DNA of 53,912 nucleotides from positions 62,001-115,912 of the forward strand of contig MEDY01000041.1 of assembly GCA_001724265.1 (NCBI GenBank), given 5' to 3'. The notes below the pieces were generated by a model. It saw only the letters and a program-made list of their open reading frames with translations. It ran no database searches and was not told where the DNA came from. A program made the translations under genes and the position numbers. Below are positions 6,801-53,912 of the stretch, piece after piece. This DNA comes from Rhizaria sp. SCN 62-66. Lineage: Eukaryota. The first letter of the stretch is position 1. The number at the start of each line of letters is the position of its first letter.

Positions 6801-7143
6801 GCTGCTGCAGCTGCTCGGTGAGCGCTCGCAGCGCCAGCTCCGTCCCGGAGGCTTCGTGACTGGTGTTCAGGTTGCTGTTACCGTTGAGAGGGACCGCGAG
6901 GCTGAGGCTGAGGCGGGAGAGCGCGGGCGTGCCGTCGCGCGGCGGGGGCGACATAGTCGTGCTGATCACCCCAGAGGTGCCCAAAACGCCTGAGGCACCC
7001 ATGAGTGCCGACTGCGAGTTGACCAGAGCGCCGGGGCTCGCCGGGGCAGCCTGCCGGTGCAGCATCAGGCCGTGGCCGTGGCCGTGGCCGTGGCTCTGCA
7101 TCAGCGGCTGCGGACTATGCGAGTGACCGTGAGCAGAGTACGA

Positions 7144-7179
<36 letters not shown>

Positions 7180-7667
7180 GGATGAGAGGTTTTGAAGATA
7201 ATGAAGCAACATCTCTTTCTGCTGCTGCTGCTGCTGTTGGTGCTGCTGCGCCGCATGCGTATCGGGCATCGAGTTGCCACCTTGGGCCCAGCCATACCAG
7301 TTGCCGCCGCCGCTGCCAGCGCCGTTGAGGCCTGGGTGGGCGCCCACCGCGGGGCTCGCGCCGCCGGCAGCCGCGGCGGCGCTGCTGTTCGCGACAAGCG
7401 CGGCTGCCACGGCGGCCGCGGCAGCAGCGGCGTTGCTGTTGTTGTTGTTGTTGTTGTTGTTGTTGCTGCCGCCACTGCCACTGCCGGTCGGACCCATGAG
7501 CGGGTAAGCCTGTGCTTGCGCCTGGGCTTGGGCCTGCGCATGAGCCTGGGCCAGCGACTGCGAGTAAGCGTACGACTGAGCCGGCTGGCTCAGACCGGCG
7601 GCGGACAGGGCCGCGGCGGTCATCGCTGCCGCTGCGGCGACCGAGTCTTGAGAAGACTGACCGTAGC

Positions 7668-7717
<50 letters not shown>

Positions 7718-8595
7718 CCCTGCGACAACCCCAACAGCGGCATCGCGAGCGGGAACATCACCTCACCGTTGGCGCCGGCGCCAGAGATGTTGTTGTTGTT
7801 GTTGTTGTTGTTGGAGGCCGTTGCGGCGGAGGCGGAGAAGACCGAGGTCGCAGACAGGGCGGGTGACGCGCGGGGCAGGCCCGCGGCGGCGGCCGCGGCG
7901 GCCACGGCGGCCACCATCGCCGCCGCTGCCGAGGCCGCGTTTGCACCGGCGCCAGCACCAGCGGCATTCGCGCTATTGTTGCTGGTAGTCCCGTTGCCGT
8001 TGCCGTTGCCGTTGCCGTTGAGGGGTGCGGTGGCGGGCGAGCCGTGGGCCTGCGCCTGCGCGACGGACTGGGCGAGCGCGCGCGCCTTCATCTTCTGCCG
8101 GTCTTTCTTGGTGCGGCCGATGTGGGCCTCCTGCTGCGAGCGCAGCGGCCACTGTAGGGGATGCAGACACTGGCACTCTGGCGACGGGCACGAGATGCCG
8201 GCCAGACAGCGGTGCGCGCGGCCCGCGCCGTGCTTGAGCGCGCAGGCGTAGTCGCGGCAGTTAGCGCCCTTGACGCAGCGCTGTGCAGACATTGCGGCGG
8301 CCTGCGCGTGGAACGGCCACTCGCGCGGATGCAGGCGCATGCAGATCATGTTGGAGCACGCCAGGCCCTGAGCGCACTTCCACTTGCGGATCGGGGCGTG
8401 CACCAGCGCGCACTCGTACACCGAGCAGTCCTCGCGGTTCGCGCAGTCGCGACCGGAGGGGTGACGGAAGGTGCAGCGCTTGCCCTTGCATTCAAGGCCG
8501 AAACGGCAGAGCGGCTCCTCGCCCTTGGCGTAGTGGCGGAACTTGCAGGTGCCGGCCGCGAAGCCGGCGCAGGACAGGCCATTCATGCATGGCGG
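3832..8595 (-). CDS. Tandem CCCH zinc-finger protein (six fingers, Nab2/ZC3H14-type spacing) with a ~1,400-aa Q/N/H/G-rich prion-like tail; probable RNA-binding protein
   Basis: Five C-x5-C-x4-C-x3-H fingers (e.g. CRFGLECKGKRCTFRH) plus one C-x5-C-x7-C-x3-H lie at the N-terminus, followed by polyQ, polyN and (HG)n tracts. The stop is TAA at 3834-3832. The main exon starts after the acceptor ctctccAG (8596), with a likely intron at 8744-8596 (donor GTACGC). The first in-frame ATG is at 8586; the true 5' end is uncertain. Confidence 0.8.
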
Positions 8596-9974
8596 CTGGA
8601 GAGATATAATCAAAGCGGAATAATGAAAAAAGAAAGGGCGTTATGAACAAAGTCGCAATACATGCTGTGGCAATCTGATATGCGTAGTGACGGAGAGTGT
8701 GATGCAGGATCAAGGTGGTAAGATGACAAGAAAGGGTGGCGTACCGAGCGCTGCTCATCAATAGGAGGGGAGGGGCTGCAGTTGTCTCGCTGAAGCTCCT
8801 GCGGCTCCGCAAGCCCCCCGAGGGCGCCAGGCGGTGACTCGGATATTGTGACACAGCGGTCCGGCCGCAAGGCACGGTCACGGGGGCGAGGACAAGGGGC
8901 GTTGAGAGAGGAGAGCAGACTTGGGGCGGTGACACGGGTTAAGGCGACCGCTTAGTACAGAGCTGATTTAAGAACAAATACGCGACGAAAAGCGGTTAAC
9001 AACGACAAGTTAGATAAATTAATAGTTAAGGCATGTGATATCTTGGCAATATGTTGAAATTGAGTATTTTGGCGTGTCGATGTGGGTGGCACGCGGATGC
9101 CACGCTGCATAGAGTTCTGGCGACCCGAACTATATCTGACGATATGTACAGGTAGATCGCAGTTACAGACGTGTTCCTATTTAATTTATGATCCATAACC
9201 AATTCTAAAACAATGTCCAGTATCATATTCGCAGATGAATATCGTCTTCGCGTATTATGCAAAATTTTTGAAGGCTGCTGATAGGCATCTCAGAGCTAGC
9301 ATCGGTGCCGCTGACGCGGCCACCGTCCCCACTCCACGGCTATTTCTAGTCACAGACAGCGAGGATAAATGCAAATTTCAATGTTGCACGAATATAATGT
9401 AGGATATTAGCGAAAATGTTGTGTGAGCGCGCAATTTTGTTGTATAGGCTATATTTGTTGCTGTGTATTAAGTTGATAGGTCCAAGGCCCGCTCAGGCAA
9501 GCATTTATGCCATCGGTGCCGCTATAAAGCAGGATATTAATGCAATATAGAGAAACTAAGCCACCGATAAATAATGTGCGCGTATCGCGCACACAACCTA
9601 AACGATTGTTTGATCTCTTTCGGACTTAGCATTGGCCAGATAAAGCCTCCGTGCATCCTACTGGACGCGTCGCACACACATCGAAGCGCGATCAACATAC
9701 ACATATTGAAGGATGATTTTCAAATCAAAGCTATTGTTGAGCTATATATCACATTTCTAAATACAAATCCACATGTTGTCATGCAAAATCCGGGCGCCAA
9801 CGCCTCTAGTTGCCGTTTGACGTTCGCGACCAATACAAGCATCGGATTTACTGCGATGCTGCCACAGCCCCAGTCGCAGCCATCGCCCCGCTCATAGTCA
9901 TCAGCATTAAGCTGACACTCGCGCTGACACTGAGTTCTGCCTGCTCACCGTCGCCGCGACTCACGGTCACGTCA

Positions 9975-12415: not shown

Positions 12416-15035
12416 TTACTCCATCTTGGAGCGCTTGTCAGTGTGCTCGACGGCGGCCTCGTCCTCGGAGCCAGAGTGGTCGTTCATGTCGGACGCGCGC
12501 TCCTTGTCCTTCTTGTCCTTCTTGTCCTTCTTGTCCTTCTTTTCCTTCTTGTCCTTCTTCTCCTTCTTCTCTTTCTTCTCTTTCTTCTCCTTCTTGTCTT
12601 TCTTCTCCTTCTTGTCCTTCTTGTCCTTCTTATCCTTCTTCTTCTCCTTCTCCTCCTCCTCGCTCTCGTCGTCGCCGTCGTCGCCGTCGCTGGCGCTCTC
12701 GTCCTTCTCGGCGCCGCCGCCAGCCGCCTTCCAGGCCGCGACCTCGTCCGCGTACCGCAGCTTGTCCTGTGACGCCGCGGCCTCGAACGGCGCCTTGTCC
12801 TCGGCGCTCGCCTGCCCCCAAAGCGCGCCGATCTGCTTCGCCACCTCGGTGATGCTCAGCGACGGCTGCTCCGCGCGCACCTTGGGCCGCCGGTCCGCGG
12901 AGAAGAACATGAAGGCGCTCTGCGCGCGCTTCGGCTCGCCCTCCTTCTTGTTGCCCTTCTTCTTCCCCTTCTTGCCGCCCGCCGCAGCCTTCTTGGCGGC
13001 CGGCGCGCGCTTCGCCGCGGGCTTCTTCGCCGCGGCCTTCTTCTTGCGGCCGCCGTCGTCGCTGCCGTCGCCCTCGCCCTCGGAGCCCGAGCCGGAGCCG
13101 GAGCCGGAGCCCTCGGACTCGAAGTCGTCAGAGGACGACGACGAGTTGGCCTGCACAGTGTAACGTAACAGTAGGACAAACGAAGATACGAAAAGTGACA
13201 AGAGTGAGAATATGTCGGTAAAAATCACAGGGTGACGAACACATTTCAAAGAAAAACACCAAAATTGTCACATCACACCAAAATATGAAATTGAAGGAAA
13301 TACAAGTAGGAATACAGAGCGTCAAAGCGAGATGCTACGGTACCTCAAAGCTGGAGGCGTCCTCCTCGGATTCGGAGCCTTCGGCGGCGGCGGTGAGTTG
13401 TGCCAGCAGACTGCCCGCGCCGCCCTCGGCCGCGCGCTTGCGGCCCGCCGCCGTGGGGTCCTCGGCGGCCTCGAGCCCGAGCTTGCCGAGGCGCTGGCGC
13501 ATCGCGTTGGCGTTTTCGATGCGGATGTTCTTGCCCTCGAGGAACTTGAAGATGGCGTCGAAGGCGGTGTTGGGCACGGTGGAGAAGTCGAGCTGCGGCG
13601 TCGTCTTGTTCTTGAGCTTGAACACCAGGTCGAAGGAGGAGCTGGCGAAAGACGACTCGGCGCGCTTGAACGCCACCGAGATAACCTCGTCGTGGTAGAA
13701 GTGGAACACGGGCTTCTTGACGTAGAAGAACGAGTTGCCCAGGAAGAAAAGGATGCCGTCGTCGGCCTTGTAGGTCGCCTGCACGCCGACCTGCTGCGTC
13801 GGGTGCAGGTCCGCGAAGACCTTGGAGCCCTTGACGACGTTCTTCTTGATCACCGTGGAGAGCGCGTGCGGGATGATCACCTCGGGCGGGCCCTGCAGCG
13901 TGTCTTCGGCGAAGTTATCGTTGCCGAAGTGCGCCACGCGTGCCGCGGAGTCACCGCCGCCGAGCGGGACGGAGATGTCCGCGCCGCCCAGCGGCAGCTG
14001 CGCGATCAGGTACGGGTACGCAGTTTGACCCTGTGTGTGTGCGTGTGTGTGGCAACAAAGACGTGTACGACATTTGGGGTTATATGACAATGGAGATGTG
14101 AGGGTTTGCAAATCAAATTAGCATGCGGCATGATTAGTATGTAAGTACTCGTTGATCAAGAAAATCTTCATTCTACCTATCAAGCAGGGCCGCTGAAAGT
14201 CTTGTGTTTGAGGACTAATGCGCATGCGTACCTGACGGATGGGGGGCTCGACACCGATAATCATGATCTGCGCGTCCTCGTCGGGCTTGTCGAGGAGGAA
14301 AATGCGGGTAAAGTTGGCCACGGGGACCTTGTAGCTGAAGGTCGCCGTCGACATGCGGACGTGGTTGTAGAAGCACTGGAACGTGTACTTGCCGCGCGGC
14401 ACGAGCAGAGGCACCTCGAGCGTGCAGAGCGGCGTCTCGCCAGAGTCGACGTCGCCGGCGGACTGCAGCTGCTCGTTCAGCTGCTCGGCGGGCGTGGGCA
14501 CAATCATGCGGTCCTCCTCGTCGTAGTGGGGTTGGACGAAGAAGCGGAGCTCGGTGAGCTCCTCGACCTCCTCGGCGGCCTGGTCGTCGGTCACGAACTC
14601 AAGAGCGAGCTCCTTCTTGCCGTGCACGACGCTCTGCGCCACCGAGGCCAGCGGCACGTCGAAGAGCAGCTTGTCGTCCAAGGTAAGCGAGAGCAGCCCG
14701 GCGTTGATTGCGACCTCACCGTAGGACTTGCCGGAGGCGTCGAGCACGTTGTCCTTGACGGGCTTGTCGAGGGCCTGAATGATATCGCGCACCTCGGTCA
14801 TCGCCGTCGCGGGGAAGCCCGAAAAGCGGAGGTACGTGTTATCCTTTTGCTGAATCGTCATCACAAAGCCGCGATTCGAGTCGTGGAGCGCGAAGGCCGC
14901 GATTGAGGCGGGCTCCACAGTGATCTGCTTGCCGCGGTTGCCCACGAACACGACGCCCTGCGCGGCGTCGAACGTGAAGGCACCGGAGATCTGGCGGCCC
15001 TGGGCGAGGTATGCAATCGAGTCGTAGCTCGGCAT
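12416..15035 (-). CDS. SSRP1: FACT complex subunit SSRP1/Pob3 (~741 aa)
   Basis: Exons 15035-14232, 14030-13344 and 13150-12416, all introns GT-AG. Motifs: ELALEF...LTELRFFV, LLVPRGKY, PPIRQ|GQTAYPYL, YKADDGILFFL..SFFYVKKP, SFDL, an acidic region, and the HMG box PKRAQSAFMFFS...ITEVAKQIGALW. TAA stop. Confidence 0.95.
12500..12650 (-). repeat. Coding 9-nt tandem repeat encoding (KKD/KKE)n in the SSRP1 C-terminal tail
   Basis: Repeated tccttcttg/tccttcttc units on the + strand, translating to EKKKDKKDKKDKKEKK... Confidence 0.85.
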
Positions 15036-15457
15036 CTCTCTCTACATAGCACGGACGGGTGAAATCGACACAACAACCGGTCAACAGAAGGCACAGAGGT
15101 AGGAGATCGAGGCGTCAGAGAGAAGGTTTCCACGAAAGAATGCTGGGTGAGGCGAGAGTTTGTCATCGGGTCTGTGGACACACATCCTACTCTATGACGC
15201 AAAATATGATACACATTATACAAAAATTGTGTGCAGATTTAAGATAGTCCTATTACTAGGAATCTGACGTTGCACATGATGCTGGCCAAAGGGATCCACG
15301 ACACCATCTGTTGCGCGCGAATCCGAGCGAAGCTGTGGATCACAATTTTCGCGAACCCTCTCGGTTCCAACCACAGCCGATTGTGGGAGATTTCAAGCAG
15401 CGGGCCTGCCATAGCGTGATCGTCAATAGTTGAATTGAACATTGTTCGCGACTTAAC

Positions 15458-22810: not shown

Positions 22811-24023
22811 ATGTCTACCCCTCAAGAGCAATCCCAGCTCGTCCGCGACAGCCTTATGGTCTTTGGCGGCACCGGCTACATTGGCAAAGTTGTCTGCAAG
22901 ACTGCTTTGGCGACTGGCTACGACGTACGTTCCTTTGGTTTCATCCCTTCGCATCTGCCACCACAAACAGTACTCAACAACCCCCCTCCAACGATGCATT
23001 GACGAGGACACACGCCAAGTTGAGCTTTATTTGACATATTTCTCCACATACTACGGGTACACAATCTTTGTTTATGTCTTCAACCACGTCTTTAACCCGT
23101 CTCTGCCGTTTTGTGTCCTTTTTGACTTAAACTGTAGGTGACCGTGGTCACTCGCAAGACCCCCGCTCCGGCCGCTCTCGAGCCCTGGCAGGAGCCCATC
23201 GCCTTCATCGAGGCTGATATCAACGACAGCAAACAGGACGACCGCTGGGTGCCCCAGATTGCCCGCCACAAGGGCGTTATCTCCTGCGTTGGCGCCTTTG
23301 CCACAACGCAGAAGGAGATGGAGCGTGTACGTTTCCTCACTTGAAGCTATAATACCACTTGCTGAGATATATGACACTCTATATCAAGTTTTACAATTCC
23401 GATTTTGGAAATATGTTATGGGTAATGATTTAGACAATATCATATTTGAAGTCTCGATAACTCGATCTCACCATTGTATCATCCGTTTGTGCACACTTGC
23501 ACTACTTCTTGCTTGTCACTTGTCGCTTGTCACTTGTTGCCTGCCGCTTCGCCGTGTCCAGATCAACGGCGCCGTCAACGAGCGCATCGTCTCTGCCGTG
23601 GCCGCGACCCCGTCGACCCGCTTCACCTTTGTCTCAGCGCACGCCTTTATCCTCCCCGGCCTGCTCCTCAACGGCTACTATGCCGGCAAGCACCGCGTCG
23701 AGACGGCCATCGAGCAGCAGCTCCCGGGCCGCGGCGTCGCGTTGCGCCCCTCCATGGTCTACGGCGTCCGCGGCGGCTTCGACTCGGGGCTCTTTGCGCG
23801 CCCCTGGGCGAAGCTGGCCAATGCGATCCCGCACGGCGAGACGGCGCGCAAGGTGCCCGGTTACGACATGCTCTGCGTACCGCCCGTGTCGGTGCAGAAC
23901 GTCGCCAACGCCGCCGTCGTCACCGCGGGCAAGGGCGCCGCGGACCCCCGTGTGCCCAAGGCCGGCCAGTCCCCGTTCATCGACGTGTTCGCCATCCAGG
24001 ACAACTTCGGCAGCACCGCGTAA
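22811..24023 (+). CDS. NAD(P)-binding Rossmann-fold atypical SDR/epimerase (Coq11/NDUFA9-like), ~254 aa
   Basis: Exons 22811-22924, 23138-23326 and 23562-24023. Motifs: VFGGTGYIGKVVCK, GVISCVGAF...MER|ING, FVSA, GYYAGKHRVE (YxxxK), LRPSMVYG and PPVSVQNVA. TAA stop. Confidence 0.88.
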
Positions 24024-24587
24024 GTGTGCACTAACCGGTACAGACAGTATCAAAGTGTTCAAATGTTCCTGTGTACAGAGTTTCAGTGATGCGAGTACGA
24101 GTATCGGCTGTGGTTTTGATTGTAGTGAGTGATTTCATACTTCAAAGACACAAGACCCATGGCTTGTGTCGATAGAGTATCTGTGACAATGTCTCATTAT
24201 TGTTGTGTAACAGTTACAACGTCGGCGTGAATATGTAAGTGTGTTTTGTATTGCTGGTTGAGACGCGTTATCACGTCAAAGCAGTGTTCTGTGTCCTTTA
24301 TGTGATCATATAATTTAAATGTAAACATGTGTGGTGAAAAAACAAACAAGTTGGAAGAAACCACGAGTTTCTGTTGCCTATGGCTACACCCCAACATATT
24401 TAATGGATGAATGGTACGTACAGTAAAAACCATTCTATCGCTGATTAACTAAGAATAATAACAATACAATGAATGCTATTGTTTCAATTTTGAACAAACT
24501 TTGGAGCTCAAAAAGAGATCCTTGCTTGTACAGCAGTATAGCTGTAGCTTGATGCGCCGTCAGACAGATCAAGGGACAAGATAGTTT

Positions 24588-27380
24588 TTACTTGTTCTCG
24601 TCGTCCTTCTTTGCACCGAATGAAAAGGGCTTTGTACCAATCGTGCTCGAGCCGGTGCCAAAGGCAGAGGCGGCGCCGAAGCCAGTGCTGAAAGCGGGTG
24701 CCGTACCAGAGCCAAAGGCCGCTGGTGCAGTGCTGGCATTGCCACCGAAGGAAAAGGGCTTAGGGGCACCGAAACCGAGCGAAGGAGTGGTCGCGGCACC
24801 GGCAGCAGGGGCGGCGGCGTCGGCATCAGCCGCGAGCTTCAGGGTGACACCGAAGAAGGGCTTGCCGCCCGCATCAGCAGCCGCGGCAGGCTTTGCACCG
24901 AAGCCGAACCCGGTCGAAGCAGGGACAGGGGCGGCGGCAGCATCGGCCGCAGCGAGCTTGGGGGCGGCGAAGCTGAAGGCAGGGGCAGGGGCGGACTTGT
25001 CAGTGGCGGCAGCGCCAAAGCCGGATGCGGGCTTGGGAGCGTCAGCGGCGCCGAATTTAGCCGCGCCAAACGAGAACCCACCAGCCGCAGGAGCAGTAGC
25101 AATGGCGGGCGTGGAGCCGAAGCCAAAGCCGGCGTTGGTCGAGTTCGCGGTCACGGTGACGGTATTGAAGCCAAACGAGAAGCCCGCGGGCTTGGGCACG
25201 TCAGCCGGCTTCGTCGTCGCCGCTGCGCTCGCGGTGACGGCGTCGACGGCGGCCTTGGGCGGCGACGGGGGGCTGGAGGAGATGTCGCCCTGGTCGTCAT
25301 CACCCTGCTCGTCGCCGTCGTTGCCTTCGTCCTGGTTGTCGTTGTCATCCTCAAAGTCGCCCTCGCCAGCGATCATGCTAGCGTCGCCCTCACCCTCATC
25401 CTCGCCATCGCCCTCGACGTCGTCGCCTTCAGTGGCAGCGGCAGCGTCACCCTCGACAGCGTCCTCGCCGTCGGCCTCATCCTGAGCAGCGTCAGCACCA
25501 GCCTCGGCATCGGCGTCGGCATCAACGTCGGCGTCAGCCTCAGCGTCGGAGGCTTCGATGCCAGCCTTGTCGCCGTTATTGCCGTCGTCGCTGTCGCTGT
25601 CGCCAAGAACAATCTCGGAGTCAGTGCCAGACTCGGAGCCAGAGCCGGCCTCGGAGTCAGAGGCCGCAGCGGAGGCATCCTTGGATGCGGCTTTAGAGCC
25701 AGCGCCCGAAGCCGCACTCTTCACGCTCTTGCCGTCGTCGTCATTGTCGCTCATGTCCTTGTCACGCTTCTTGTCAGCGTCGACGTCATCATCAACGTCA
25801 TCGTCATTGTTCTCGAGCTCGCCGTCACTACCGAACACATCAGCGCCCTGGTCATCGTCATCGTCGTCGTCCTCATCGGCGCCCTCGCCGAAGACGTCGC
25901 CCTCCATGTCGCCCTCCACTCCCCACATGCCACCTTCCAGAGCAGCGTCGCCTTCGTCGCCCTCGGCGGCGTCGGCGTCCTCGTCCTCGTCGGCGTCGTC
26001 CGAGCCGGCCTCGTCCTCCTCATCCGCGCCCTTGGCCACGGCCGCAGAGCGCGCGGCGGAGAAGTCGAAGCTCAGCTTGCTGCCCGTCGCGGACGTCGCC
26101 GTCGCGGCGCCGGCGCCGAACGAAAAGGCCGGCTTCGCGGCAGCCGCGCCGAATGAGAACGCCGGCTTGGAAGCAGGAGCAGCCTCAGAGGCAGCGCCGA
26201 AGGAGAGCGCGGGCTTCGCGGCGGGGGCAGTAGGAGCGGCAGCAGCAGCGCCGAATGAGAAAGCAGGCTTGGTTGCGGGGGCGGCAGTCTCAGTCGCCGA
26301 CGCCGAGGCAGGAGCCGCGGGCTTGGCACCGAAGCTAAAGGCGGGGGCAGCGGCAGCGGCGGGAGCAGCGGCCGGGGTGCCGAAGCTGAACGCGGGCTTA
26401 GCGGCGGGCTCCGCAGCCGCAGCTTCAGGGGCAGCCGCAGCAGCGGGCTTCACAGTCGCGAAGAAGCCGAAGGAAGGAGCAGCAGCCGCCGCAGCAGGGG
26501 TAGCAGCAGCTACGGTCGGCTCCGTAGGCTTAGCGGCACCGGAGCTGAAGACAGGCTTGCTCTCAGCAGCAGGAGCCGCAGCGGCGGCGGGGGCAGCGGG
26601 GGCAGCGGGGGCAGCAGCGGCGGGGGCCGCCGCCTTGAGGCCGAACGAGAAGACAGGACGTGGCTTCTCGGCGGCGGTCGAGGCCGCGGCGATGGCGGCG
26701 ACAGCGGCTTTCTCCGCCGCCAGGCGCTCCGCGACAACGCGCTCCGCCTCCGCCTGGGCATCCGCCTTGGCCTTGGCCTCAGCCTCGGCGACGTCCGCAG
26801 ACGCAGCAGCCTTGGCCGCGGCCGCGGCGCGGGCCTGGGCCTGCGCGAGTGCCGCGGCAACGGTGTCGGCCGCAGCAGCCACGAGGTCCTTGCCGGCTTT
26901 GTTGCTGGGGGCGGACACGTCCTCCTCCTCGCAGGCCTTGCCCTTAGCAGGAGCAGCGTCATTGGGAGCCGCAGCACCGCTCACATCGTCGACGTTGTCG
27001 TCGTCGCCGGCAGCGGGGAAGTTGAGCGACGCCATGATGTCACTGTCGGACATCGCGGCAAAGGAGCCGACACCGGCCGCAGCAGCAGCGGGGGCAGCAG
27101 CAGCGGGCGCCGCAGCGACAGCGGGCTTCGCGGCGCCAAAACTGAAGGCAGGCTTCGCAGCAGCAGCCTCCGGAGCAGCGGCAGCGGCAGCTGGCTTGGC
27201 GCCGAAACTGAAAGCCGGGGCGGCTGCAGCAGGCTCAGCGGCTGCAGCGGGCTTGGCACCAAAGCTGAACGCAGGAGCAGCGGCGGCAGCGGGCTTGGCG
27301 CCGAAGCTGAACGCGGGGGCAACAACCGGGGCAACGGTCTCAGCGGGCCTGGTGGCAGCAAAGCTGAACGCAGGCTTGGT
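24588..27380 (-). repeat. FG-repeat region (PAFSFG/GFGFG units) interrupted by a D/E-rich acidic block (~25300-26030)
   Basis: Roughly 25 FG/FxFG motifs with A/P/K spacers in the translation of the 24588..31694 ORF. Confidence 0.85.
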
Positions 27381-30300
27381 TTCGGCAGTGACAAGAGCAG
27401 CAGCAGCGACAGAAGCAGCTGCGGCAACCACAGGAACAACATCAGCGGCAGCGACAGAGCTCGCGACGGGCGCCGAGTCGGCCGAGATGTTGAGCGAGGC
27501 GTGCTTGACCTCGGTCTCGACCTCGGCCTCGAGCTTCTTGCCGCCCGCCGCGGCCGCCGCCGCCTCGCCCGCGCCCGCCGCGGCCGCGGCAACAAGCGCG
27601 GCGCCCTGCGGGAACATGCAGCAGTGCGCGAGGACGCCCGCGCGCAGCTCCGCGGCCCTGGCCAGGGCGGCGCGCGCGTCAGGATGCCCGTGCGCGGCGG
27701 CCGCGGTGGCGTCGGCGGCCACCGTGGCCAGCGCGGCGAGCAGGTGCTCCACCAGCGTCAGCGGCACCCACGCGCGCGCCTCGAGCTGCAGCGCCGAGAC
27801 CGCCGCGCCGTTGCCCGCACTTGTGCTGGCGCTGGCGGGGTTGGCGGGCATGAGCGCGCGCGCAAGCTCAGCCTCGGCCAGGTGCGCACGGACCGTGCGC
27901 AGCGTGCCGCAGGCTAGCGCCACGGCCTCGGGGATCATGTGGTACTTGACCAGCACGCGCACCAGCGGCTCCACGCCGAAGAAGGACCGCTCCGCGCGCC
28001 GCACCACGCTCCCCGCCGGGCCGCCCGTCGCCGCGGTTGCGGCCGCGGCCTTGAGCGCGTAGGCGGGCCCCGCGGTGGCCGAGGCCAGCACCCAGGCGGG
28101 CAGCTCGAGCGCGTCGTCGGCCGCGAGCACGGCCTCGGCCACGGTCGCGTAGTGCCGCGGGCCCCACAGCGCGCCGTCGGCCGCCACGCAGAGCTCGGTG
28201 GCGGCGCGCAGATGCGCCCACGCGGCGGCCGCGGCGCGGCGGTGCGCGGCGGCGCGGGCGAGCGCGGGCGACACGGCCGCCAGCGCGACCGGCGCCAGCG
28301 ACGGGTCGTGCTTGCTGCCCGCGAAGGCGAACGAGCCCGTCCGCGCGGCCGACACCGCGGGGCCACAGGGCGCGCCCACGCGCGGGTTGCCGCCGCCGCC
28401 GCGAGCCGTGAGCACGCCGAACGACAGCGGCGCCGGGACGCCTTGCTCCGCGGCGGCGGTGGCGGCGGGCACGGGGCCCGCGTGCGTGTGCGTGACGGCG
28501 AGCGGGGCCGCCGCGGCGGCGGCGCGCAGCGCGAGGGCCGCGGTGGCGCCGCGCGAGCTGACGGCGCGGAGCGCGGCGGGCACGGCCGTGAGCAGCGAAG
28601 ACGCGTGCAGCGCGGAGCGCGCGGCGAGGGCCGAGGGCGCAGGGGCCGCGACGCGGGCGGCGGCGGCGGGCGCGGCGGCGGCGGCCGAGGGCGCGGCGAG
28701 CTGGAGCGCCACACACGCGGTCGCAAAGGCGGCCAGCACGGCCGAGACGTCGGGTGCGGGCAGGCCCCAAGCGGCGGCGACGGGGCAGGCACTGCCAGCG
28801 AGCGCGGGCGCGGTCGCGCAGCGCGGCTGCAGCGCGGGCGCGGGGGCAAAGACGCGGAGCAGCGCCAGCGCGTCGGAAAAAAGGCCCGCGCGGACGAGGT
28901 GCGCGGCCACCGCGGCCACCGACAGCGGCACGGGCGCGGGCGAGCCGAGCGGCAGCACCGAGCCCGCTTGGGCGGTCGCGGCGCGCGCGAGCGCGGGCGC
29001 GGGGGCCGTGGGGTCGATGCCCGCGTCGAGCAGGCGCAGCTGCGCGGTGCAGAGCGCGACGCAACGCAGCAGGTGCGTGCGCGTCACGATGCGCAGCTGC
29101 GTCACCGTCCGCGTCCGCGCGCCGGCGCCGGCGCCGCTGTGCGCGCTGAGGGAGAGTCTGTGGCCGAGCTCTGCGGCGAGGTCCGCGGCGTCGGCGGCCG
29201 TGCGCGAGCGCTTGGAGGCGCCCGCGGCGACGGGACCCGCGCGCACCCACAGCTGCCGCTGCTGTGCGGCGTCGCCCGCGGCCGTGCCGGACGCGGCCTC
29301 ACCGTCCGAGTCATCGCTGTCCGAGAGCGCGAGCCCGAAGCGCGCGCGGCCCTTCTTGCCCGTCGACGGCGGCACCGCCGCGCCGCCGCGGCGCGGGGTC
29401 GCGCGGGTCGGCGTCGCGGCCGCGGCCGCCGATGCGGTGGACAGCACGAGGGCGCCGGAGCCGGCGCCAGCGCTGTGACGCAGCGCCGGCAGCGCGCCGG
29501 AAGCGTTCTTGCCATTGGTGACCTTGCTGCTGACGTCAGCGGGAGAGGGCAGCGTGCGCGTGACGGTCTGCTCGCACGACACCCAGTCGCAGGCCACGGC
29601 GTCAAGCGCGGCATCGGCGCCGGCGGCCGCGCGTGCGCGGGCGATGTCGAGCGCGCCCAGCGTGGCCGTGGCGGCGTCAGAGAGCGCCTGCACAATGGCG
29701 CGCAGCTGCCGCGCGCCGGCCGCCGCGGCGCCCGCGGGTGCGCGGGTGCGCGCGTCTGGCGCGGCGGCGGCGGCGGCGAGCGCGGCCTCGAGGCGCAGCG
29801 TCTGCTGCAGCATCGCCTTCGCGGCCATGCGCGGGTGCTCGCGCGTGAGGTACAGCGAGTACAGCACTTCCTCCGCCGTCAGCCGGCTGCCACCAGTCGC
29901 CTGCGGGGCGCGCGAGCCCGCCGCGGCGGCGGAGGCTGTGGCGGGGGCGCGGGAGTAGGCGAGCGCGACGTCGGCGGTCGCGGCGCGCGCCCAGAGCGCC
30001 TCCTCGAGCAGCGGCAGCAACGCGCGCCAGGGCTGCGCGAGCAGCGGCGCGATGGCGTTGTGGCTGTAGAGGTGGTCCGCGAAGCGCGCGACGAGCTGCC
30101 GCCGTAGGGCCGCGCTGCGCGCGCGCGCTGCGGCCGCGAAGGCCGTGTCGTACCAGGGCTCGGGGGTGAGCGCGCGCGCGTGGGCGTCATCGTCCTCGTC
30201 CTCCTCGTCAGTCTTGGCGCTGGCGTTGTTGCTGTTGCTGCTGCTGCTGCTGTCGGCGCGGAGGCGGAGGGCGAGGTTGAAGGTGTCGGCGCACAGAGCG

Positions 30301-33300
30301 TCGGCCACGGCGGCCGACACGAGCGGGAAGCGCGCTGACGCTGGGCCCGCGCTGGCGGCACCGTGCGCGTCGCCGTCGTTGCTGTCGAAGCCGGCGTCGG
30401 CGTCGGCTGCCTCGGCGGCGGCGTCGGGCCCGTCGGTGACCGCGAAGGCGAGCATGCGCACGAGCGAGAGCGCGTACCGCGTGCCGACCGCGCCGCTCGC
30501 ACCCGAGTGCGGCTGCGCGTTGGCGAGCAGCGCGGCGGCGCGGGCGAGCCTGGTGACCGCCTCGGCGGTCGCGGCGGCGGGCTGTGCGAGCAGCGCCGTC
30601 ACGGCGGCCAGGAAGCTGGCGTGCGCGGCGCGCGGCGCGCCCAGCGCGAGGTGGACGTGGCCCATGGCCTCGGCGAAGAGGGGCGCGGTGGCGAGCCCGC
30701 AGAGCGCGAGCAGCGTCGCGGCGTGTTGGTGCTGGCGCAGAAGCAGCAGCAGCAGCGCGAGCGCGCGCACGCGGGCCAAACCAACGCCCGCCGCGGCCGC
30801 CAGCGCCAGGTCCACGGGCGTGGCGCGCGCCAGCAGCAACGCCGCCGCCGCGGGGTTAGAGCCCGCGAGGGCCGCGGCGGAGATGTGCGCCGGCAGCAAC
30901 GACAGCGGGGACTCAGCGTCCGCGCTCAGGTCACTGGTGCTGACACCGCCGCTGCTGCTGTTGGCATCGTCGTTGTTGATGCCGACGTGGAGCGCGTCGG
31001 GTGCGGGCGCGGGGGACAGCGCAGCGAGCAGCGCAAACACGGCGTCCGTGACGGCGACGGCGGCGCCGCGCGAGGCGGCCGCGGACTTGGCGGCGGCCGC
31101 GGCGGCGGGGGATGCCGCGAGCAACGAGAGCAGCGAGTCATCGAGCGCGAGGGCCGCGCCCGCCTTGCTGAGGCCGAGTCCGAGGCCCGCGGCCACGGCG
31201 GGGTCCAGCGTCGGCGCCGGCAGCAGCGGGGCAGCGGTCGCAGCGCCAGAGCCCGCGCCGGCGACGGCCGGCAGCGGCAGCATCACAGCGGCCGAGGCCG
31301 AGGCAGACGCCGCGGCGGTCGCGGCGGCCGCGGCCGAGAGGGGGAAGTGCGCCGAGTACACGCCCGGGGCGACCTCGCTGGCGCGGCCGTGTGTCGCCGC
31401 GCCACTCTGAGCCGGGGCGGGAGCGGGCGCGAGCAGCGGAAGCGTAGCGAGCCAGCTGAGAACGCGGTAGGCGCGCAACAGGCGGGCCAGGCGCGGCAGC
31501 ACGGAGCGCGCGATGGCCGCCGACACCGAGGGCGCCTCGCCGGGCAGCGCCGCGGAGGCCGCGGCGGAGGCGTCAGGGTGCGCGGCCGCAGCCGTGAAGA
31601 ACAGGTACAGAGTGCGCGTCAGGCCGAGGTGCGCCGAGATGACCTGGAAATAGAACAAAGGGGAAAACATTATCAAAGGAAGCCATACATACATGAGTTA
31701 TGATTTCAAGCAAAATACAAATTCCCAATAAGCGAAATCATGACTCGTCGGCGTGCGATATATCATGAGAAGCATGGCGGCGTACCTGTCGGAAGGACTG
31801 CGCGACGAGCCTGGGCGCGAGCGCCACGGCGGCGGGGTGGCGCAGCCCGCGCTGGGAAGCGAGCGCCAGCGTCGCCGACAGCGGGGACGCCAGCGACGAC
31901 GGGTTGAGTGCCGCCAGCAGCAGGTCCGCGCCCTGGAGCGCGGCGCGCGGGGGCAGCGCGGCCAGCCACGCCTGCGCAGCCGAGGCCAGCGCGGCGCGGT
32001 GCGCGCGGTCCAGTCCGCCCGCCGCGGCCCCACTACCGGCGTGGCCAGAGGCGGCGGAGGGGGCGGCGGAGAGCGCGTGCAGCGCCCAGTCCGCGGCGGC
32101 CTCCCGAAGCGCGGCCTCGGAGAGCGGGTGCGACAGCGGCGGCAGCAGCAACCCGTCCCACGCGAACGCCGCGCCCGCGCCCGCGGCGCTAGTGCCGCGG
32201 AGGAGTTCGGCCTCGTGCGCACCAGAGCCGGCACCGGCGCCGTAGGGCACGAGCGCGTTGCTGCCGGCGCCGGCGCTGCTACTGCTGCTGTTGCTGCTGG
32301 CGTGGTGCATGTTCGCGATGAGCTCGGCGACCGCTGGCGCGATGCTGTCGGCGCCGAGGTCGCCGGACACTGCGCCCGCGAGCCCCGGCAGCGAGGTGGC
32401 GCGAGCAGTCACGGCGGCGGCGCGGACCGTGACGCACGCGGCGGCAACGAGCACCTGCATGGCGCTCTGCGCGGCGGCGGCGGCGGCGGCGGACCCGGGC
32501 CCCGCGCCTGCGAGCAGCGAAAGCGCGCGCGGCGCTGCGGCGGCGATGCCATGCGGCAGCGGTAAGCGCAGCAGTGGCGCTGCCGCGGGGACGGCGCCCG
32601 CGGCGGCGGCGACGAGCGCGGCGGGTGCGGGCAGCTGCGCGACGCCGGCGATGTACGCCGCCTCGAGTGGGGTTGCGGGCCGCAGGACCGAGATGGCGCG
32701 CGGGCGGATGAGCACAGGCGACGGCGAGGCGGACAGCGCGCCCAGCCCAAGGCAGACCGAGGCCGGGGCCGAGAAGAGCGGCTCAAGCGCCGCGCACGAG
32801 GCCAGGAAACGGAGCCACGCCCCCACGCGCGTCGCGGGCGACAGCGCGGCCCCGAGGCGCTGCCACTGCTGCTGCTGCTGCTGCTGACTGATGAGAGAGT
32901 CGTTGCCGGCGTAACCGAGGCGCGGCACGGCGTCGTTGTTGTCCGCGTCGCTCTCGCTGCCGTCCTCATCCTCATCTTCGTCCTCGTCGTCGTCGCCTTC
33001 GCCGGCAGCGGCGGCGGCGTCGGTCTCGAGGCCAAGCGCGGCGACCGCGGCGATGACAGCGAGTTTCAGCGCAGTCACCTCGGCAGCGACGAGCTCGCCC
33101 GTGCCCGCGCCCGCGCTCGCGGCGGCGGCTGCGGCGACAGCGACGGCGGAGGCCGCGGCGGCCGAGGCGGTGGCGGAGGCCGGGCACAATGTAGGCAGCA
33201 CGGTTGCGGGCGCGCCGGCCGCAGCGGCGCAGGCGTTGGCGGCCGCCAACACGGTCGCCGGCGAGAAGCGCGCGGGGAGGAAGACGCGGCTTAACATCGC

Positions 33301-35754
33301 GTCGTCGATGACGGCGGCGGCTGCGGCGGCGCTGGAGCGGTGCTGGGGGCTGCCCGCCGCAGCAGAGGCGTTGACGACGCCGTAGCTGCTGTACGCGAGC
33401 AGGCTCGCACCGCTGCTGGCGCTGCTGTCGAAGTGCACGGGGGTGGCCACAGCGGCGAGCGCGGCCGCTGCGGCCTCGGCGTCGTCGCGGCCCGTCACGA
33501 GCGCCTCAGCGTCGGCAGCGGTCAGCACCCGCTGCCACACGTTGCCGCCGCTGCCCGCAAAGCCGCCGCTGCTGTTGGCGGCGCGCGAGAAGGCGTCGTC
33601 GTGGGCCTGTGCGACCGTGAGCGCGCTCTGCGCGGCGGCCGCGGCCGAGGCGGCGGCTGCCGCGGGGGACGGATGGCGCCGGTCCTCCTCTGCATCGAGC
33701 ATGCCGCTCACAGTGCTGCTGCCGTTACTAGCGCTGTTGAAACCGAAGCCGCGAGCGCGGGCGGAGCGGCGCGCGGGCGTCGGCGGGTGCGCGGCCGCGG
33801 CTGTTGCGGCGGCGGCGGCGGCAGCGGCGGCCGAGGCCGATGCCGATGCCGAGACGGGCACGGGGTACGCCAGCGCCAGCGCAGCCGACGCGAGCCCCGC
33901 GCGCGGCAGCACGAGGCGCGGGAAGCCGCAGCCGGCGCGCGCGGCGCAGGGCGCGGGCACCAACAGCCTCAGCACCGACACACTGCTCGCGTTATGGCCA
34001 CTGCCACTTCCACTGCCACTGCCGCTATTGCTATTGGTGGCGCTAGCGTTGGTGTGCGCGAGCGACCAGCGCGCCCACACGACGCCGCCGCGCAGCGCCG
34101 TGTCGGCGAGCACGGCGGCGCCACCGCGGAGCCCCGGAGCGAAGGCAGACGCGCGCACTGCGTTGAGGTTGTCGGCCGCGGCGCAGACGGGCGCCAGCGC
34201 CACGCGCCCGCACGCCGACACCACCGTCGCGCCCGCAGAAGCAGATTGGTCGGCACTGCTGCTGCTGCTGCTGGCGGCCGTCGCAGCGACGGCGTTGGCG
34301 GCGTCCGCGCTGCTGTCAGACGCGAAGACAAAGTGCACCGCGTCGGCTGCGGCCGCCGTGGCGGCGTTGACGCCCGCGGCGGCGGCCTCGACGGCGGCTG
34401 CGGCCGCGACGGCGGCGGCGGCAGCGTTGGCGTCGGCGAGCGCGACGAAGGGCGCCTGCGCTGTGGAGAAGAGGTCGAAGTGGGGCGCCGCGTAGCCCGC
34501 GCGCGCGGTCGCGACCAGGAACGCGCCGGGCTCGTCAGACGCGGCCACGATGCGCGCCACCGCGGGCATGTCCGCGCTGGCGCAGGCGGTGGCGGCGGTG
34601 GTGTTGCTCTGCGCGAGAGAGCGGAGCGGGACGGTGATGACCACGCGCTGGGTGGCGATGCACCAGACACGGAGACGCGAGTCCGAGCAGGCGGCGAGCA
34701 AGAAGCGCGCGTCCGTAACCACGCCGTCCACAACCGCGCCGTGGGAGGGCATCGCGGCGATGGCCAGCACGCGGTACGCACCGACGGGACTCGCGGCAGA
34801 GGCGCTGACGGCGGAAACAGTGCCATTGTCGCTGTCGCCGCTACTGGCACCGCCCCAGAAGGAGGAGAGCAGCCCGCCGAGGCCCTTAATGGCGCCCGCA
34901 GCGACGGCGGCGGCCACGGAGGCCGCGGGCGCCGTCTCGACCAGCTCGATCTGCGGCAGTGGCACTGCAGCACTGGCAGTATTTGAAGCAGCAACAGCAG
35001 AGCCAGAGCGGGTGCTTCGGTGGCCGTGATGACTGTGACCGTGGGTGAGCGCGGGAGCGGGCGCGACGGGCTTGAGCGCGATGACGCCCGTGGCCGAGTC
35101 CGAGACGGCGACGGAGACGGTGCTCACGGCCGCGAGGCAGAAACGTGGGGCAGCCGAGGCCGCGGCGGCGGCGGCGGCGGCGGGCGCGAAGCCGGCCGCC
35201 GCGGCCGCAGAGCCCTGGGAGGGCGGGACGAAGGGCACGGACGTGAGCTGCGGCTCGACAATAAGCGACGACGTGCGCGCGTGCGCCTGCGTGTGCTGCG
35301 CGTACGCCGACTGCGCGGTGACGGAGAAGGCGCCGCCGCCGAGGCTGTGCTGGTGGTGGACGGCGGCGGAACGGCGGAAGTGTACGGGGTGCGCGAGCTC
35401 GATCCTGTGAAGCGTCATGTCGGCTGTGAGTGCAAAGAACACGACGCAGGGCTGCGCGGCCGAGGCCGAAGCGGCCGCGGGGTAGTGCTCGGCGACCGCG
35501 ACGGGGGCGATGAGCGCGGCGCCCAGGTCGATGGTGCGCGAGCCGTAGTTGCTCGGGTGGGAGGTTTGCACCTCGGAAAACGTGAGAGAAGAGTCCTCAA
35601 CACACCACACGAGCGAGACGGAGCTTTCGGTGCCGTCCTGGTTGTGGACGATGTGAGACGAGCCCGTGGAGGCATTGGCGGTGGCCAGGAACGGCAAGGG
35701 CAAGGCTGTGGCCTCGACCAGGCCGCACTCGCTGAGGCCTGACGCCGCGCTCAT
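24588..35754 (-). CDS. NUP160: Nucleoporin Nup160/Nup120 (Ala-expanded) with a C-terminal ~1,000-aa FxFG-repeat/acidic extension; ~3,670 aa
   Basis: Exons 35754-31786 and 31643-24588; intron GTACGC...ttccAG. Collinear Nup160-like motifs: LLAACSDSRLRVW (propeller), RVFLPARFSPATV, EVLYSLYLTREHPRMAAKAMLQQTLRL, LELPAWVL, LVRVLVKYHMIPEAVALA and AWVPLTLVEHLL. PAFSFG repeats follow, up to a TAA stop. Confidence 0.8.
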
Positions 35755-36311
35755 GATCTCGCAGCGGCAGGAACGACGGATTCAAGAGGCTGGAAAGATG
35801 GGAAGCGCCGAAAAAGTGTGTGCAGAAGCTAACAGTGTAAAGGAGGGGCGGCGCGGTGTGCGTGAGTGGAGTTGGGCGGGACGTTAGTCTGGGTGAGAAA
35901 GTGTGCGGCGCGAGGAAGTATAGAACGCTCATGAGGACATCTATAGGAAAAAAAACTATTAAATTAAACAGGCGTAGTAGCGAACTTATACAGCATATCG
36001 ATATATCTTAAACTCACAAAAAGGATCCCTCCCACTTTTGATTTTCCTATTACCCGCACCGGGGCGCTTCAGCCCACCACCCAACCGCCGTCCCAGTCCA
36101 GCTGGCAGACGGGTGGTCCAGCTGGTGACTGTGAGCGCGAAAGTTAAGCCGTACGATAGAATACGTCTCAATCCAAATAACTTGACCGACAACAGTGTAT
36201 TTCGATCGTTATATAGCATCAGTACGATATTCTCTAGATTACCCCTTAATTATATTCTCACAGATACCCGTCTTTGCCACCCTCTGACGTGATCCCTTGC
36301 CCAGTCGGACA

Positions 36312-36521
36312 ATGGCCCAGAACGCCAACCCGACCGTCTACGAGCGAGCTGGGGAGGAGCGCATGATTCTTGTTGATGACATCGACGACAATCCCGTGCC
36401 CTTCGTCCAGGTTCTCTTTGCCGAGCGCCCCGGCACCTCGTTTGCGCGCACTGTGCACCCCGCAGACCCTGCCTCTGTCACTGCTCCTGCTGCTGCCGCG
36501 AAGACGCCGCCTACTTCTGCG

Positions 36522-36558
<37 letters not shown>

Positions 36559-46668: not shown

Positions 46669-47902
46669 ATGAAGACAACGCTGTTTCTTGTTGCTCTTGC
46701 AACAATTTGCCTTGCAACTACTGCAAACGCCGCATCGGCGGACGACTTTAAGGTATGTCTTTACATTTTGTAGCCCTGACCACCACAAACTTCAAGTCAG
46801 ACCACCATGACTTAAACCTCACTATATTGCACTTCTACATCATCCCAAATCGTGCCTCTAATAAATGCACTAGCCTACCGTTGACTCTGCCATCTCCGCG
46901 GCTGTTGGTGACGACGTCAAGCTTTCTACGGAAGGTTTCATTCCTGCTGAGTCTGGCGACGCGATCCCCGAGTCCGACATTGCTCTCGCCCTATTCGACT
47001 CGGACATCAAGATCATCGATGACGACAACAAGGACGTAGTTGCTGAGACTTTCGACCGGGATTACGACTTTTCGCTCAACTACGACCCCCACGACGCTGA
47101 TGACAGCGAGAAGTCGGAGGCTGAGTCTGAGGAAAACAACGAGGACACTGTGGCGACAGTGTTTGATGAGGAGCATTCGTTCTCCCCTTTCCGCAACGAC
47201 GACTACAACAACGATGTCGATGTAAACGACAACGCCAAGCTTGCGCCGCTCTCCTGCCAGCACCGTTGCGCCGTCAAGCGCACTATCGCGGCCATCGCCC
47301 GCCGCGCCCGCTGCGCCACGCGCTGCCGCCGGTGCGCTAAGCGCTGCTCCCGCCACTGCGCCGCCGTGCGCGCCGCGGTTGCCACCGGCGAGCCCCTGCA
47401 GAGCTCGGCTGCGTTCATCGAGGCCAGCGTCCGCCCTGACGGCGCCGTCGTCACGCGCGCCTTCTGGCCCGCCTCCGAGCTCGGCCTCGGTGGCGAGCGC
47501 GACGACACGACCGACAGCGACAACAGCGAGTTCCCCGTCGAGTACAGCGACGACGCCAAGCTGCCTGACGACGGCGCACCGGGCCGCTCCGCGCGCGCAA
47601 TGTTCTTTCCGGGTTTCGGCTTTGGCGGCTTCGGCGGCGGCTTCGGCGGTGGGCTCGCCGGCGGCATCAGCATCGGTCCCCTCACCATCGGCGGAGTCAT
47701 CGGCGGTGGCGCAGTTGCGGGCGGCGGCATCGGGGGACCTATCTACGACAAGTATGGCGGGCAGCTCCAGGGCCCGCCCCCGCCGCAGTACGGCGGCCCC
47801 CAATTCGGGGGCCCCCAGTTCGGCGGCCCCCAGTTCGGCGGCCCCCAGTTCGGTGGTCCGCAGTATGGCGGCCCCCAGTTCGGCGGCCCTGGTTTCTTTT
47901 AA
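46669..47902 (+). CDS. Secreted modular protein (~370 aa): signal peptide, acidic region, basic Cys-rich motif, Gly-rich and (QF/YGGP)7 tail
   Basis: Exon 46669-46752 encodes MKTTLFLVALATICLATTANAASADDFK. Intron 46753-46873 (GTATGT...cactAG). Exon 46874-47902 is in frame with the 47150 ORF. TAA stop. Confidence 0.85.
47786..47890 (+). repeat. Seven 15-nt coding repeats encoding Q(Y/F)GGP
   Basis: cagtacggcggcccc / cagttcggcggcccc units with synonymous variation. Confidence 0.9.
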
Positions 47903-53335: not shown

Positions 53336-53912
53336 TCTCGAGACAGGAGAAAAGTGAAGAAGCAAGTCCAAGACGTGGAGTTCTGTTGCTGTAGTAAAAA
53401 GCTATGGGCGCACAAATAGAATTGGGGAAGTGAGTGCGGGGAGTGTCAAGAGAGACCGGAATCGACGCGCGATGATACAGATCTGAGAGGGCACCGGGCT
53501 TCCTAACAGCGCGCATACCGCCTTAAATAAAACGCATACGGCCATTTCAAAAGCGAATCAGTATTATATAGTAGCGATAAAACGCCATACTAGAATGGCT
53601 CGGCTGTTTGACGACGGTATATGAACTTTCGAATATGTCGCCCACGTCTCCAACACCCTCGAATCAGTTGGGCTGCTTGTCACAGGGGGGTCACAAATTG
53701 GGCCGATTGCTGTTATTGACGAAATCTTGATAAATATGTCGTAAAACTGTGTTTGAGTTCGTGCACAACATTCTAATTGCTAATACACACATTATACTTT
53801 ACTGTCTTATTTCGAGGACGTTAGTATGCGGAGATCTGATCAATTTAGCTGTTTTCCCAGTCACTTTTTCACAGTGGTCTTCGGTCAAAACACCGGTTTG
53901 CCCACCAATTTG

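Follow-up and report, generated by a model that had tools for sequence, protein, structure and literature searches.

A putative Nup160 scaffold nucleoporin with a C-terminal FSFG-repeat tail in Rhizaria sp. SCN 62-66

The stretch analyzed here (hereafter the window) comprises 53,912 nucleotides (nt) of Rhizaria sp. SCN 62-66 (GenBank assembly GCA_001724265.1, contig MEDY01000041.1, positions 62,001 to 115,912 of the forward strand), and all positions below are those of the window. Its minus strand carries a gene, 35754..24588, that can with moderate confidence be said to encode a single Nup160-FG nucleoporin of 3,674 amino acids (aa), in which a scaffold protein of the Y complex is followed by a long tail of phenylalanine-glycine (FG) repeats. 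An earlier note on this DNA, made from the letters alone, had proposed that an FG domain is tethered directly to the outer-ring scaffold. Since both parts lie in one exon and an independently assembled contig covers the junction between them, direct tethering is the simplest reading of the Nup160 profile matches and the FG tail, and from it we infer one mRNA and one protein across the junction; among the RNA contigs listed, none bridges the two parts.

The gene is built from two stop-free minus-strand frames, one at 24588..31697 (2,369 codons) and a second directly upstream at 31738..35781 (1,347 codons), which are joined in phase 0 by its sole intron (31644..31785; 142 nt, GT..AG, AT-rich, with donor GT after 31786 and acceptor AG before 31643). 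The spliced product of the two exons starts at ATG 35754 and ends at the TAA stop at 24588..24590. Exon 1 (31786..35754; 1,323 aa) encodes an Ala-rich, much expanded region of the Nup120/160 beta-propeller type; exon 2 opens with an Ala/Leu-rich helical body (27606..31643; ~1,346 aa), continues through a 48-aa linker of Ala, Gly and charged residues in which the codons are still of body type (27462..27605), and runs on into the tail. As the earlier note had described, this passage occurs within one exon and without a stop or an AT-rich gap: across the junction (27300-27750) the GC content never falls below 56% in 50-nt windows. Elsewhere in the gene, 60-nt windows below 50% GC are found only around the intron (starts 31618-31718) and at the stop, where the first window (24588) is one. 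Across the whole window of 53,912 nt there are 38 segments below 45% GC, mostly between long open reading frames (ORFs), and only that of the intron lies inside the FG-tailed gene. An AT-rich 3' region (24021-24640, ~600 nt below 45% GC) appears only after the tail and no such gap at the junction, so that the DNA reads as one gene ending past the FG tail. Moreover, the first in-frame Met within the tail comes after four FSFG repeats; a separate FG protein would therefore need a start inside the Nup160 coding region.

The last 959 aa contain 29 FG dipeptides, 16 of them in the form F-x-F-G, where the earlier note had counted roughly 25; in 5,000 shuffles of the same residues the mean is 5.4 (standard deviation 2.2, maximum 15). 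Gly comes directly after half of the Phe residues of the tail, and hydrophobic residues (LIVMWY) make up 5–9% of the tail vs 21% of the body. Of the 29 FG dipeptides, the two FSFG blocks account for 12 and a terminal GFG/FSFG block for 15; the other two are incidental within an acidic block. Block 1a (27111..27461; aa 2718-2834; 4 FG) consists of one FSFA and four PAFSFGA(K/A) motifs spaced 14–22 aa apart, and is followed by a middle stretch of 150 aa without FG (26661..27110; aa 2835-2984), which by eye has an acidic part and then an Ala/Glu/Lys-rich one. Block 1b (26043..26660; aa 2985-3190) holds 8 FG, mostly as KPAFSFG. The long acidic block that had been noticed earlier is confirmed (25233..26042; aa 3191-3460), with 39% Asp plus Glu over 270 aa and a net charge of -93; after it, block 2 (24591..25232; aa 3461-3674) carries 15 FG (GFGFG, FSFG, AFG) between Gly/Ser/Thr/Ala spacers.

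When compared with all PDB chains, block 1a matches Nsp1 (7n85_A, expectation value E = 2.2e-42; 1o6o_D, 1.1e-11) and Nup1 (2.5e-4); three of its four matches are yeast FG-Nups and the remaining one has E = 1.4. Block 1b likewise matches Nsp1 (7n85_A, E = 6.2e-32), whereas for block 2 the PDB search turned up no nucleoporin. A Pfam scan of the tail finds no folded domain, and specifically no Nsp1_C, Nup98 autoproteolytic domain, Nup153 region or zinc finger; the middle stretch and the acidic block match no Pfam family. FSFG repeats with a KPAFSFGAKP core are the receptor-binding units of Nsp1. The tail is a genuine FG domain of the Nsp1 FSFG type, for which receptor binding is suggested by the identity of the motif with the Nsp1 repeats. 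The KPAFSFGA(K) context recurs ~10 times with differing codons, the Ser of FSFG is coded by both AGY and TCN, and DNA-level tandem repeats in the tail are few and only 79–86% alike (Tandem Repeats Finder). Because the codons vary and the DNA copies are no more alike than this, the FSFG motif seems to have been maintained at the protein level rather than recently expanded by copying.

The body, for its part, is very probably a Nup160/Nup120 orthologue, as judged by Pfam profiles. The earlier note had allowed that its N-terminal part might prove to have no Nup160 profile match; on the whole exon-1 ORF, PF11715 (Beta-prop_Nup120_160) matches with E = 2.1e-7, its 30.4 bits lying just above the curated cut-off of 30, and only profile positions 180-251 and 443-491 are covered. 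Since the protein is ~30% alanine and the HMMER bias correction is harsh, the body was rescanned piecewise, at lengths of 350 aa and 160 aa. The best blade match, to PF11715 positions 180-251, lies at 34507..34788 (aa 323-416; best E 9e-6, 25 bits, cut-off 30), and a weak match to positions 443-491 lies at 32662..32820 (aa ~979-1031; E = 0.17, 10.9 bits, cut-off 30), which is collinear with the stronger one, non-significant alone, and lost in 160-aa pieces. In exon 2 two further models match below threshold: PF23345 (NUP160_helical, positions 160-197) at 31413..31523 (exon-2 aa 41-78; E = 0.12 and 0.042 in the 350-aa and 160-aa pieces, 12–13.5 bits, cut-off 27.5), and PF23354 (NUP160/120 middle TPR, positions 213-245) at 29772..29870 (exon-2 aa 592-624; best E = 3.4e-5, 23.8 bits, cut-off 27.2). 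The three models PF11715, PF23345 and PF23354 are collinear, in the order expected along Nup160/Nup120. Generic propeller models score lower on the same 160-aa blade pieces (WD40_Gbeta 14, Hira 13–14 and WD40 12–13 bits vs 25 for PF11715), and none of ten wrong-frame or antisense control ORFs from the same DNA (213–858 aa) has a Pfam match at E <= 10.

PF23354 is the final Nup160 feature supported by a profile. The earlier note had placed the end of the Nup160-like motifs near 27650; the last profile match in fact ends at 29772, and what continues to ~27606 is composition of the body type together with helices predicted at low confidence. The boundary between body and tail near 27606 is compositional, with no motif match there. 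AlphaFold2 run without an alignment on 27444-29966 returns all helix with disordered inserts at low confidence, and in a language-model look-alike search (Atlas) the helical part falls nearest to solenoids of the Vps16, Vps41, Nucleoporin_C and IFT types, all below 0.9.

The body and the tail differ sharply in codon usage, as had been seen by eye for Ala and Pro. GCT accounts for 46/822 Ala codons in the body (6%) and 116/314 in the tail (37%; chi-square p = 5e-41), CCT for 5/167 Pro codons in the body (3%) and 26/74 in the tail (35%; p = 2e-11), and the GC content at third codon positions (GC3) declines from 0.905 to 0.713. A single change point is best placed at codon 2718 (position 27458, minus strand), with which sliding windows concur; there third-position T rises abruptly from 6.7% to 26.4%, mainly by replacement of G-ending with T-ending codons, 27 codons ahead of the first FSF motif (27380). 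Two other causes of the shift were considered and rejected: an effect of poly-Ala (GCT is used 8/247 times in Ala runs of the body vs 67/141 in those of the tail), and a general effect of gene ends (other ORFs show short GC3 dips only). The break fits a fusion joint between sequences of different history or selection regime, and its simplest explanation is that a Nup160 gene was once fused to a sequence coding for FG repeats and that the break is the scar. The separate origin of the tail suggested in the earlier note agrees with so abrupt a break, which is not proof of it.

As a separate observation, a 342-aa ORF at 46874-47899 (plus strand) has, among the ORFs of the window, the codon usage nearest to that of the tail (GCT 21%, CCT 27%, GC3 0.80). 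Its N-terminal half is acidic and its C-terminal part consists of Gly/Phe repeats (FPGFGFGGFGGGFGGG, then seven PQFGG/PQYGG units; 9 FG in total), and it matches no Pfam family.

The stretch occurs in bioreactor, wastewater and activated-sludge sequencing runs of several studies, the window itself being taken from a metagenome assembly. A Logan contig of 1,476 nt, which comes from the independent assembly of another sample (X2), covers 27210-28644 with no differences (X3 holds pieces identical to those of X2, looks like the same data, and was counted with it as one data set). Because the junction is present in an independently assembled contig, it is not peculiar to the assembly of the window. 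A mis-assembled junction, which the earlier note had considered, would mean that two neighboring genes of the same strand were merged, either by mis-assembly or by an error deleting a stop and a spacer. The metagenomic source, and a break at 27458 abrupt enough that it could resemble a chimeric join, are compatible with such an artefact; however, the contig from the other sample shows the same sequence throughout, coding sequence runs on in frame and without a spacer on both sides of the break, and no start codon is available for the first FSFG repeats alone, so that an artefact is highly improbable. A slightly different strain is found in two runs of another study, X4 and X5. A DNA-type contig of X5 spans 31326-31863 (538 nt) including the intron, with 8 differences, 4 of them inside the 142-nt intron. 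In all there are 25 coding sites with strain differences, some of which may reflect misplaced repeats, and they are too few to measure selection.

Several observations weigh against a single Nup160-FG nucleoporin, and concern in turn the identity of the body, the nature of the tail, the unity of the product and the lack of relatives. As to the body, PF11715 is the sole Nup160 model above its curated cut-off, with a margin of 0.4 bits that depends in essence on a single WD-like blade or on two; no Pfam family matches in the final ~750 aa of the body, the expected place of the hub-binding domain, and none in the scan of exon-2 aa 720-1400; and in single-sequence PDB searches the body matches no chain of Nup160 or Nup120, its matches being chance or generic WD40 (G-beta) ones at E ~0.2 or worse. 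Both single-sequence AlphaFold2 models are unusable (predicted local distance difference test score, pLDDT, 42 for 27444-29966 and 34 for exon-1 aa 1-1040). In the Atlas search exon 1 is nearest to RAB3GAP2_N clusters (0.90–0.91, 184–189 of 256 features in common). These results would suit a body that belongs to another family of beta-propeller plus alpha-solenoid proteins, for example one like RAB3GAP2, or a lineage-specific protein with an FG-like tail. However, neither RAB3GAP2_N nor RAB3GAP2_C has a Pfam match at E <= 10 in any of the 50 sequences scanned, the three Nup160-specific models match in the correct order with a clean wrong-frame control, and an FSFG tail of the Nsp1 type makes sense on a nucleoporin. 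A body of other descent than Nup160 is considered quite unlikely.

As to the tail, its seven strain differences comprise 3 synonymous and 4 non-synonymous changes, a small sample with no sign of strong constraint. Two adjacent non-synonymous differences in an RNA contig of X4 fall at an FSFG motif (26248, 26252), and may represent a misplaced repeat copy. The 4 of 7 non-synonymous differences, one of them inside an FSFG motif, the extreme low-complexity runs of neighboring ORFs (poly-A, poly-Q, poly-N, His-Gly) and the lack of a nucleoporin match in the PDB for block 2 are what would be expected if the tail were neutral low-complexity growth, a 3' expansion that drifts and plays no part in transport. 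That account fits poorly with KPAFSFGA in ~10 copies using both Ser codon families within DNA repeats only 79–86% alike, with FG dipeptides five-fold above the shuffles, and with a periodicity and motif that match Nsp1; there is little probability that it is correct.

As to the unity of the product, RNA contigs of a polyA metatranscriptome (X4) lie on the tail (25113-25388 and 27015-27437) and, in six listed pieces between 30733 and 34955, on the body, but among the matches listed none bridges 27437-27815 and none passes over the intron. This polyA library may also contain DNA. Bins of zero depth in X4 (22984-23467, 23952-24435, 35568-36051 and 36052-36535) are mostly non-coding flank, and gaps in its coverage are not evidence either way; a single transcript across the junction is plausible. 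In addition, the GCT share of the tail (37%) exceeds the range of 11 other ORFs of the window (0–21%), and codon usage so far outside could reflect separate expression or separate evolution.

The gene may alternatively yield two products, an alternative 3' end or alternative splicing giving a tail-less Nup160, or cleavage after translation, such that the FG part is not permanently tethered. This possibility has a precedent in Nup98-96 and Nup145, where an FG-Nup and a Y-Nup come from one frame (also TbNup158, in the part of PMC4758718 available), and two observations are in keeping with it: none of the RNA contigs listed bridges the junction, and the sharp break at 27458 marks two modules. It is nevertheless unlikely: the junction pieces and the tail match no Pfam family at E <= 10, hence contain no autoproteolytic domain of the Nup98 type, and no AT-rich, intron-like or 3'-untranslated-region-like segment lies near the junction.

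Finally, the collections searched yielded no homologue of the gene. An exhaustive phmmer search of 1.84 billion representatives with exon 1 as query gave no match; word-indexed searching with residues 560-1420 and 1150-1345 of P0001 gave no homologue, the candidate lists being filled by ~8,000 Ala-rich sequences; and two scans of metagenome contigs, with the C-terminal region and the propeller as queries, gave none either.

A single Nup160-FG nucleoporin would resemble known proteins in several respects. Nup160 (vertebrates, plants) and Nup120 (fungi), an arm of the Y (Nup107-160/Nup84) complex, likewise have a beta-propeller followed by alpha-helical domains; unlike them, the protein here shows no match to the C-terminal domain and carries an FG tail of ~1,000 aa. 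Through Ala-rich inserts it has about twice the length usual for Nup160/Nup120. Where TbNup152, TtNup160 and the yeast, vertebrate and plant proteins are presented as propeller-solenoids, FG repeats are not mentioned in the accessible text (PMC4758718). Among 2,962 Y-Nup sequences compiled by Katsani (2014; PMC3983603), the composites of Nup160 given in the available portion are only those with RAD51 and CcmE. Within the text open to full-text searching, no Nup160 or Nup120 with FG repeats was found in the literature.

Nsp1 of yeast has the same KPAFSFGAKP core, at a spacing of ~19 aa as compared to 11–26 aa within blocks here, and its spacers are rich in Lys, Asp, Glu and Asn, whereas those of the tail are rich in Ala and Pro. 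The FG domain of Nsp1 is N-terminal to a coiled coil, whereas that of the present protein is C-terminal to a scaffold and has no Nsp1_C match in Pfam; the similarity is of repeat to repeat and does not imply common descent. A single frame does encode both an FG domain and a scaffold protein of the Y complex in Nup98-96, Nup145 and TbNup158 (PMC4758718, from the part accessible). However, the FG part of Nup98-Nup96 is N-terminal, of the GLFG type and released by an autoproteolytic domain, whereas here the partner is Nup160 and the FG part is C-terminal and of the FSFG type. Tetrahymena Nup308, an orthologue of Nup205 with an N-terminal GLFG domain, was proposed to compensate for a repeat-poor Nup62 (PMC5450191, available portion). 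Like the protein here it is a large scaffold nucleoporin with an acquired FG domain; unlike it, Nup308 belongs to the inner ring (Nup93 complex), has a 570-aa N-terminal GLFG domain, and has been shown to localize to pores.

The nearest published analogue, in the sources as far as available, is the 'Nup153' of Naegleria gruberi (GI:290983204), in which FG repeats (1-580) are joined to a Nup75/Nup85 domain (601-1192), that is, to a Y-complex arm protein; its authors regarded it as having low support and did not study it further (PMC3983603, accessible part). It differs in that the other short arm (Nup85/75) is involved and the FG part is N-terminal. Basket nucleoporins of the Nup153/Nup1 kind likewise display FxFG repeats from the outer ring. 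Vertebrate Nup153 reaches the pore by binding the Nup160 complex (PMC2150853, available portion). Unlike Nup153, the tail has, according to Pfam, no N-terminal pore-targeting region and no zinc finger of the RanBP2 type, and its anchoring would be covalent; by analogy, a covalent Nup160-FxFG protein would hard-wire an arrangement of the kind made by Nup153 and the Nup160 complex. An FG domain on a scaffold Nup is already on record, though in the text searched not on Nup160. The pore architecture is less exceptional than the earlier note had suggested, given the precedents of Nup98-96, Nup308 and the Naegleria Nup75 case.

In such a protein the first ~2,670 aa would be a strongly expanded, Ala-rich Nup160/Nup120 with a beta-propeller and then an alpha-solenoid, and its C-terminus would run covalently into an intrinsically disordered tail of ~1,000 aa made up of FSFG repeats, an acidic spacer and a Gly-rich FG block. 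The scaffold part would presumably be incorporated in Y complexes and assemble into the outer rings. In the Y, the C-terminal domains of Nup120 and Nup85 come together with Nup145C-Sec13 to make up the hub (PMC7710722, in the part of the text available). Since the tail is on the C-terminus of Nup160, whose C-terminal domain lies at the hub, it would emerge at the hub of every Y, and each copy may project its FG tail from the ring toward the channel, which by our own estimate ~1,000 disordered residues would be long enough to reach. The FSFG motifs would be predicted to bind transport receptors as the Nsp1 repeats do, and the acidic block would most probably keep two FG zones apart as an extended, non-cohesive spacer. 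A further-reaching and rather improbable proposal is that the outer-ring Y complex is itself an FG-Nup, the Nup160 copies on both faces each bearing an FSFG domain with its acidic spacer and replacing a peripheral FxFG nucleoporin, of the Nup153/Nup1 kind, that elsewhere docks separately; in that case the contact between Nup153 and the Nup160 complex would be recorded in the gene as a 'Rosetta-stone' fusion.

Models of how the pore evolved and of its permeability barrier turn on the way FG domains are anchored and on how far that anchoring can be rewired. In the cases described to our knowledge, FG domains are on dedicated adaptor Nups, with few exceptions (Nup98-96, Tetrahymena Nup308 and the Naegleria Nup75 protein), and those few are used as evidence that scaffold and barrier can be recombined. 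If the Rhizaria gene does encode a single Nup160-FG nucleoporin, the second short arm of the Y would join the list of FG-bearing scaffolds, FG repeats would be held at a fixed and structurally known position (the Y hub) in both rings, and the organism would offer a natural test of whether FxFG repeats depend for their function on where they stand along the axis of the pore.

The organism is an uncultured eukaryote with a GC3 of ~0.9, introns and spacers that are rich in AT, and proteins with extreme runs of poly-Q, poly-N and poly-A. Over the whole window coding GC3 is 0.80–0.93 and coding GC reaches 0.84, vs 0.32–0.45 GC in introns and spacers, and because of this contrast many spurious ORFs of 100–850 aa open antisense to real genes or in the wrong frame. 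An Rfam scan of the window gives no match. At 12419-15041 (minus strand) lies a gene, cut by short AT-rich introns, for a FACT subunit of the SSRP1/Pob3 type with an HMG box (Pfam matches POB3_N, SSrecog, PH1_SSRP1, Rtt106-like and HMG_box); its N-terminal exon has a single best database match at 24% identity, so that the collection concerned contains nothing closely related to the organism. A 1,602-aa ORF at 3835-8640 (minus strand), which matches no Pfam family, begins with about five Cys/His-rich units that by eye resemble zinc fingers of the CCCH type, and over its remaining ~1,400 aa runs of poly-Q, poly-N, (AQ)n, (GN)n and His-Gly follow; within the ORF, GC3 dips locally to 0.61. A 1,649-aa ORF of this eukaryotic contig, at 48455-53401 (minus strand), contains, in two stretches, the C-terminal domain of FtsX-like permeases (PF02687, E = 3.7e-27), a domain best known from bacterial ABC transporter permeases.

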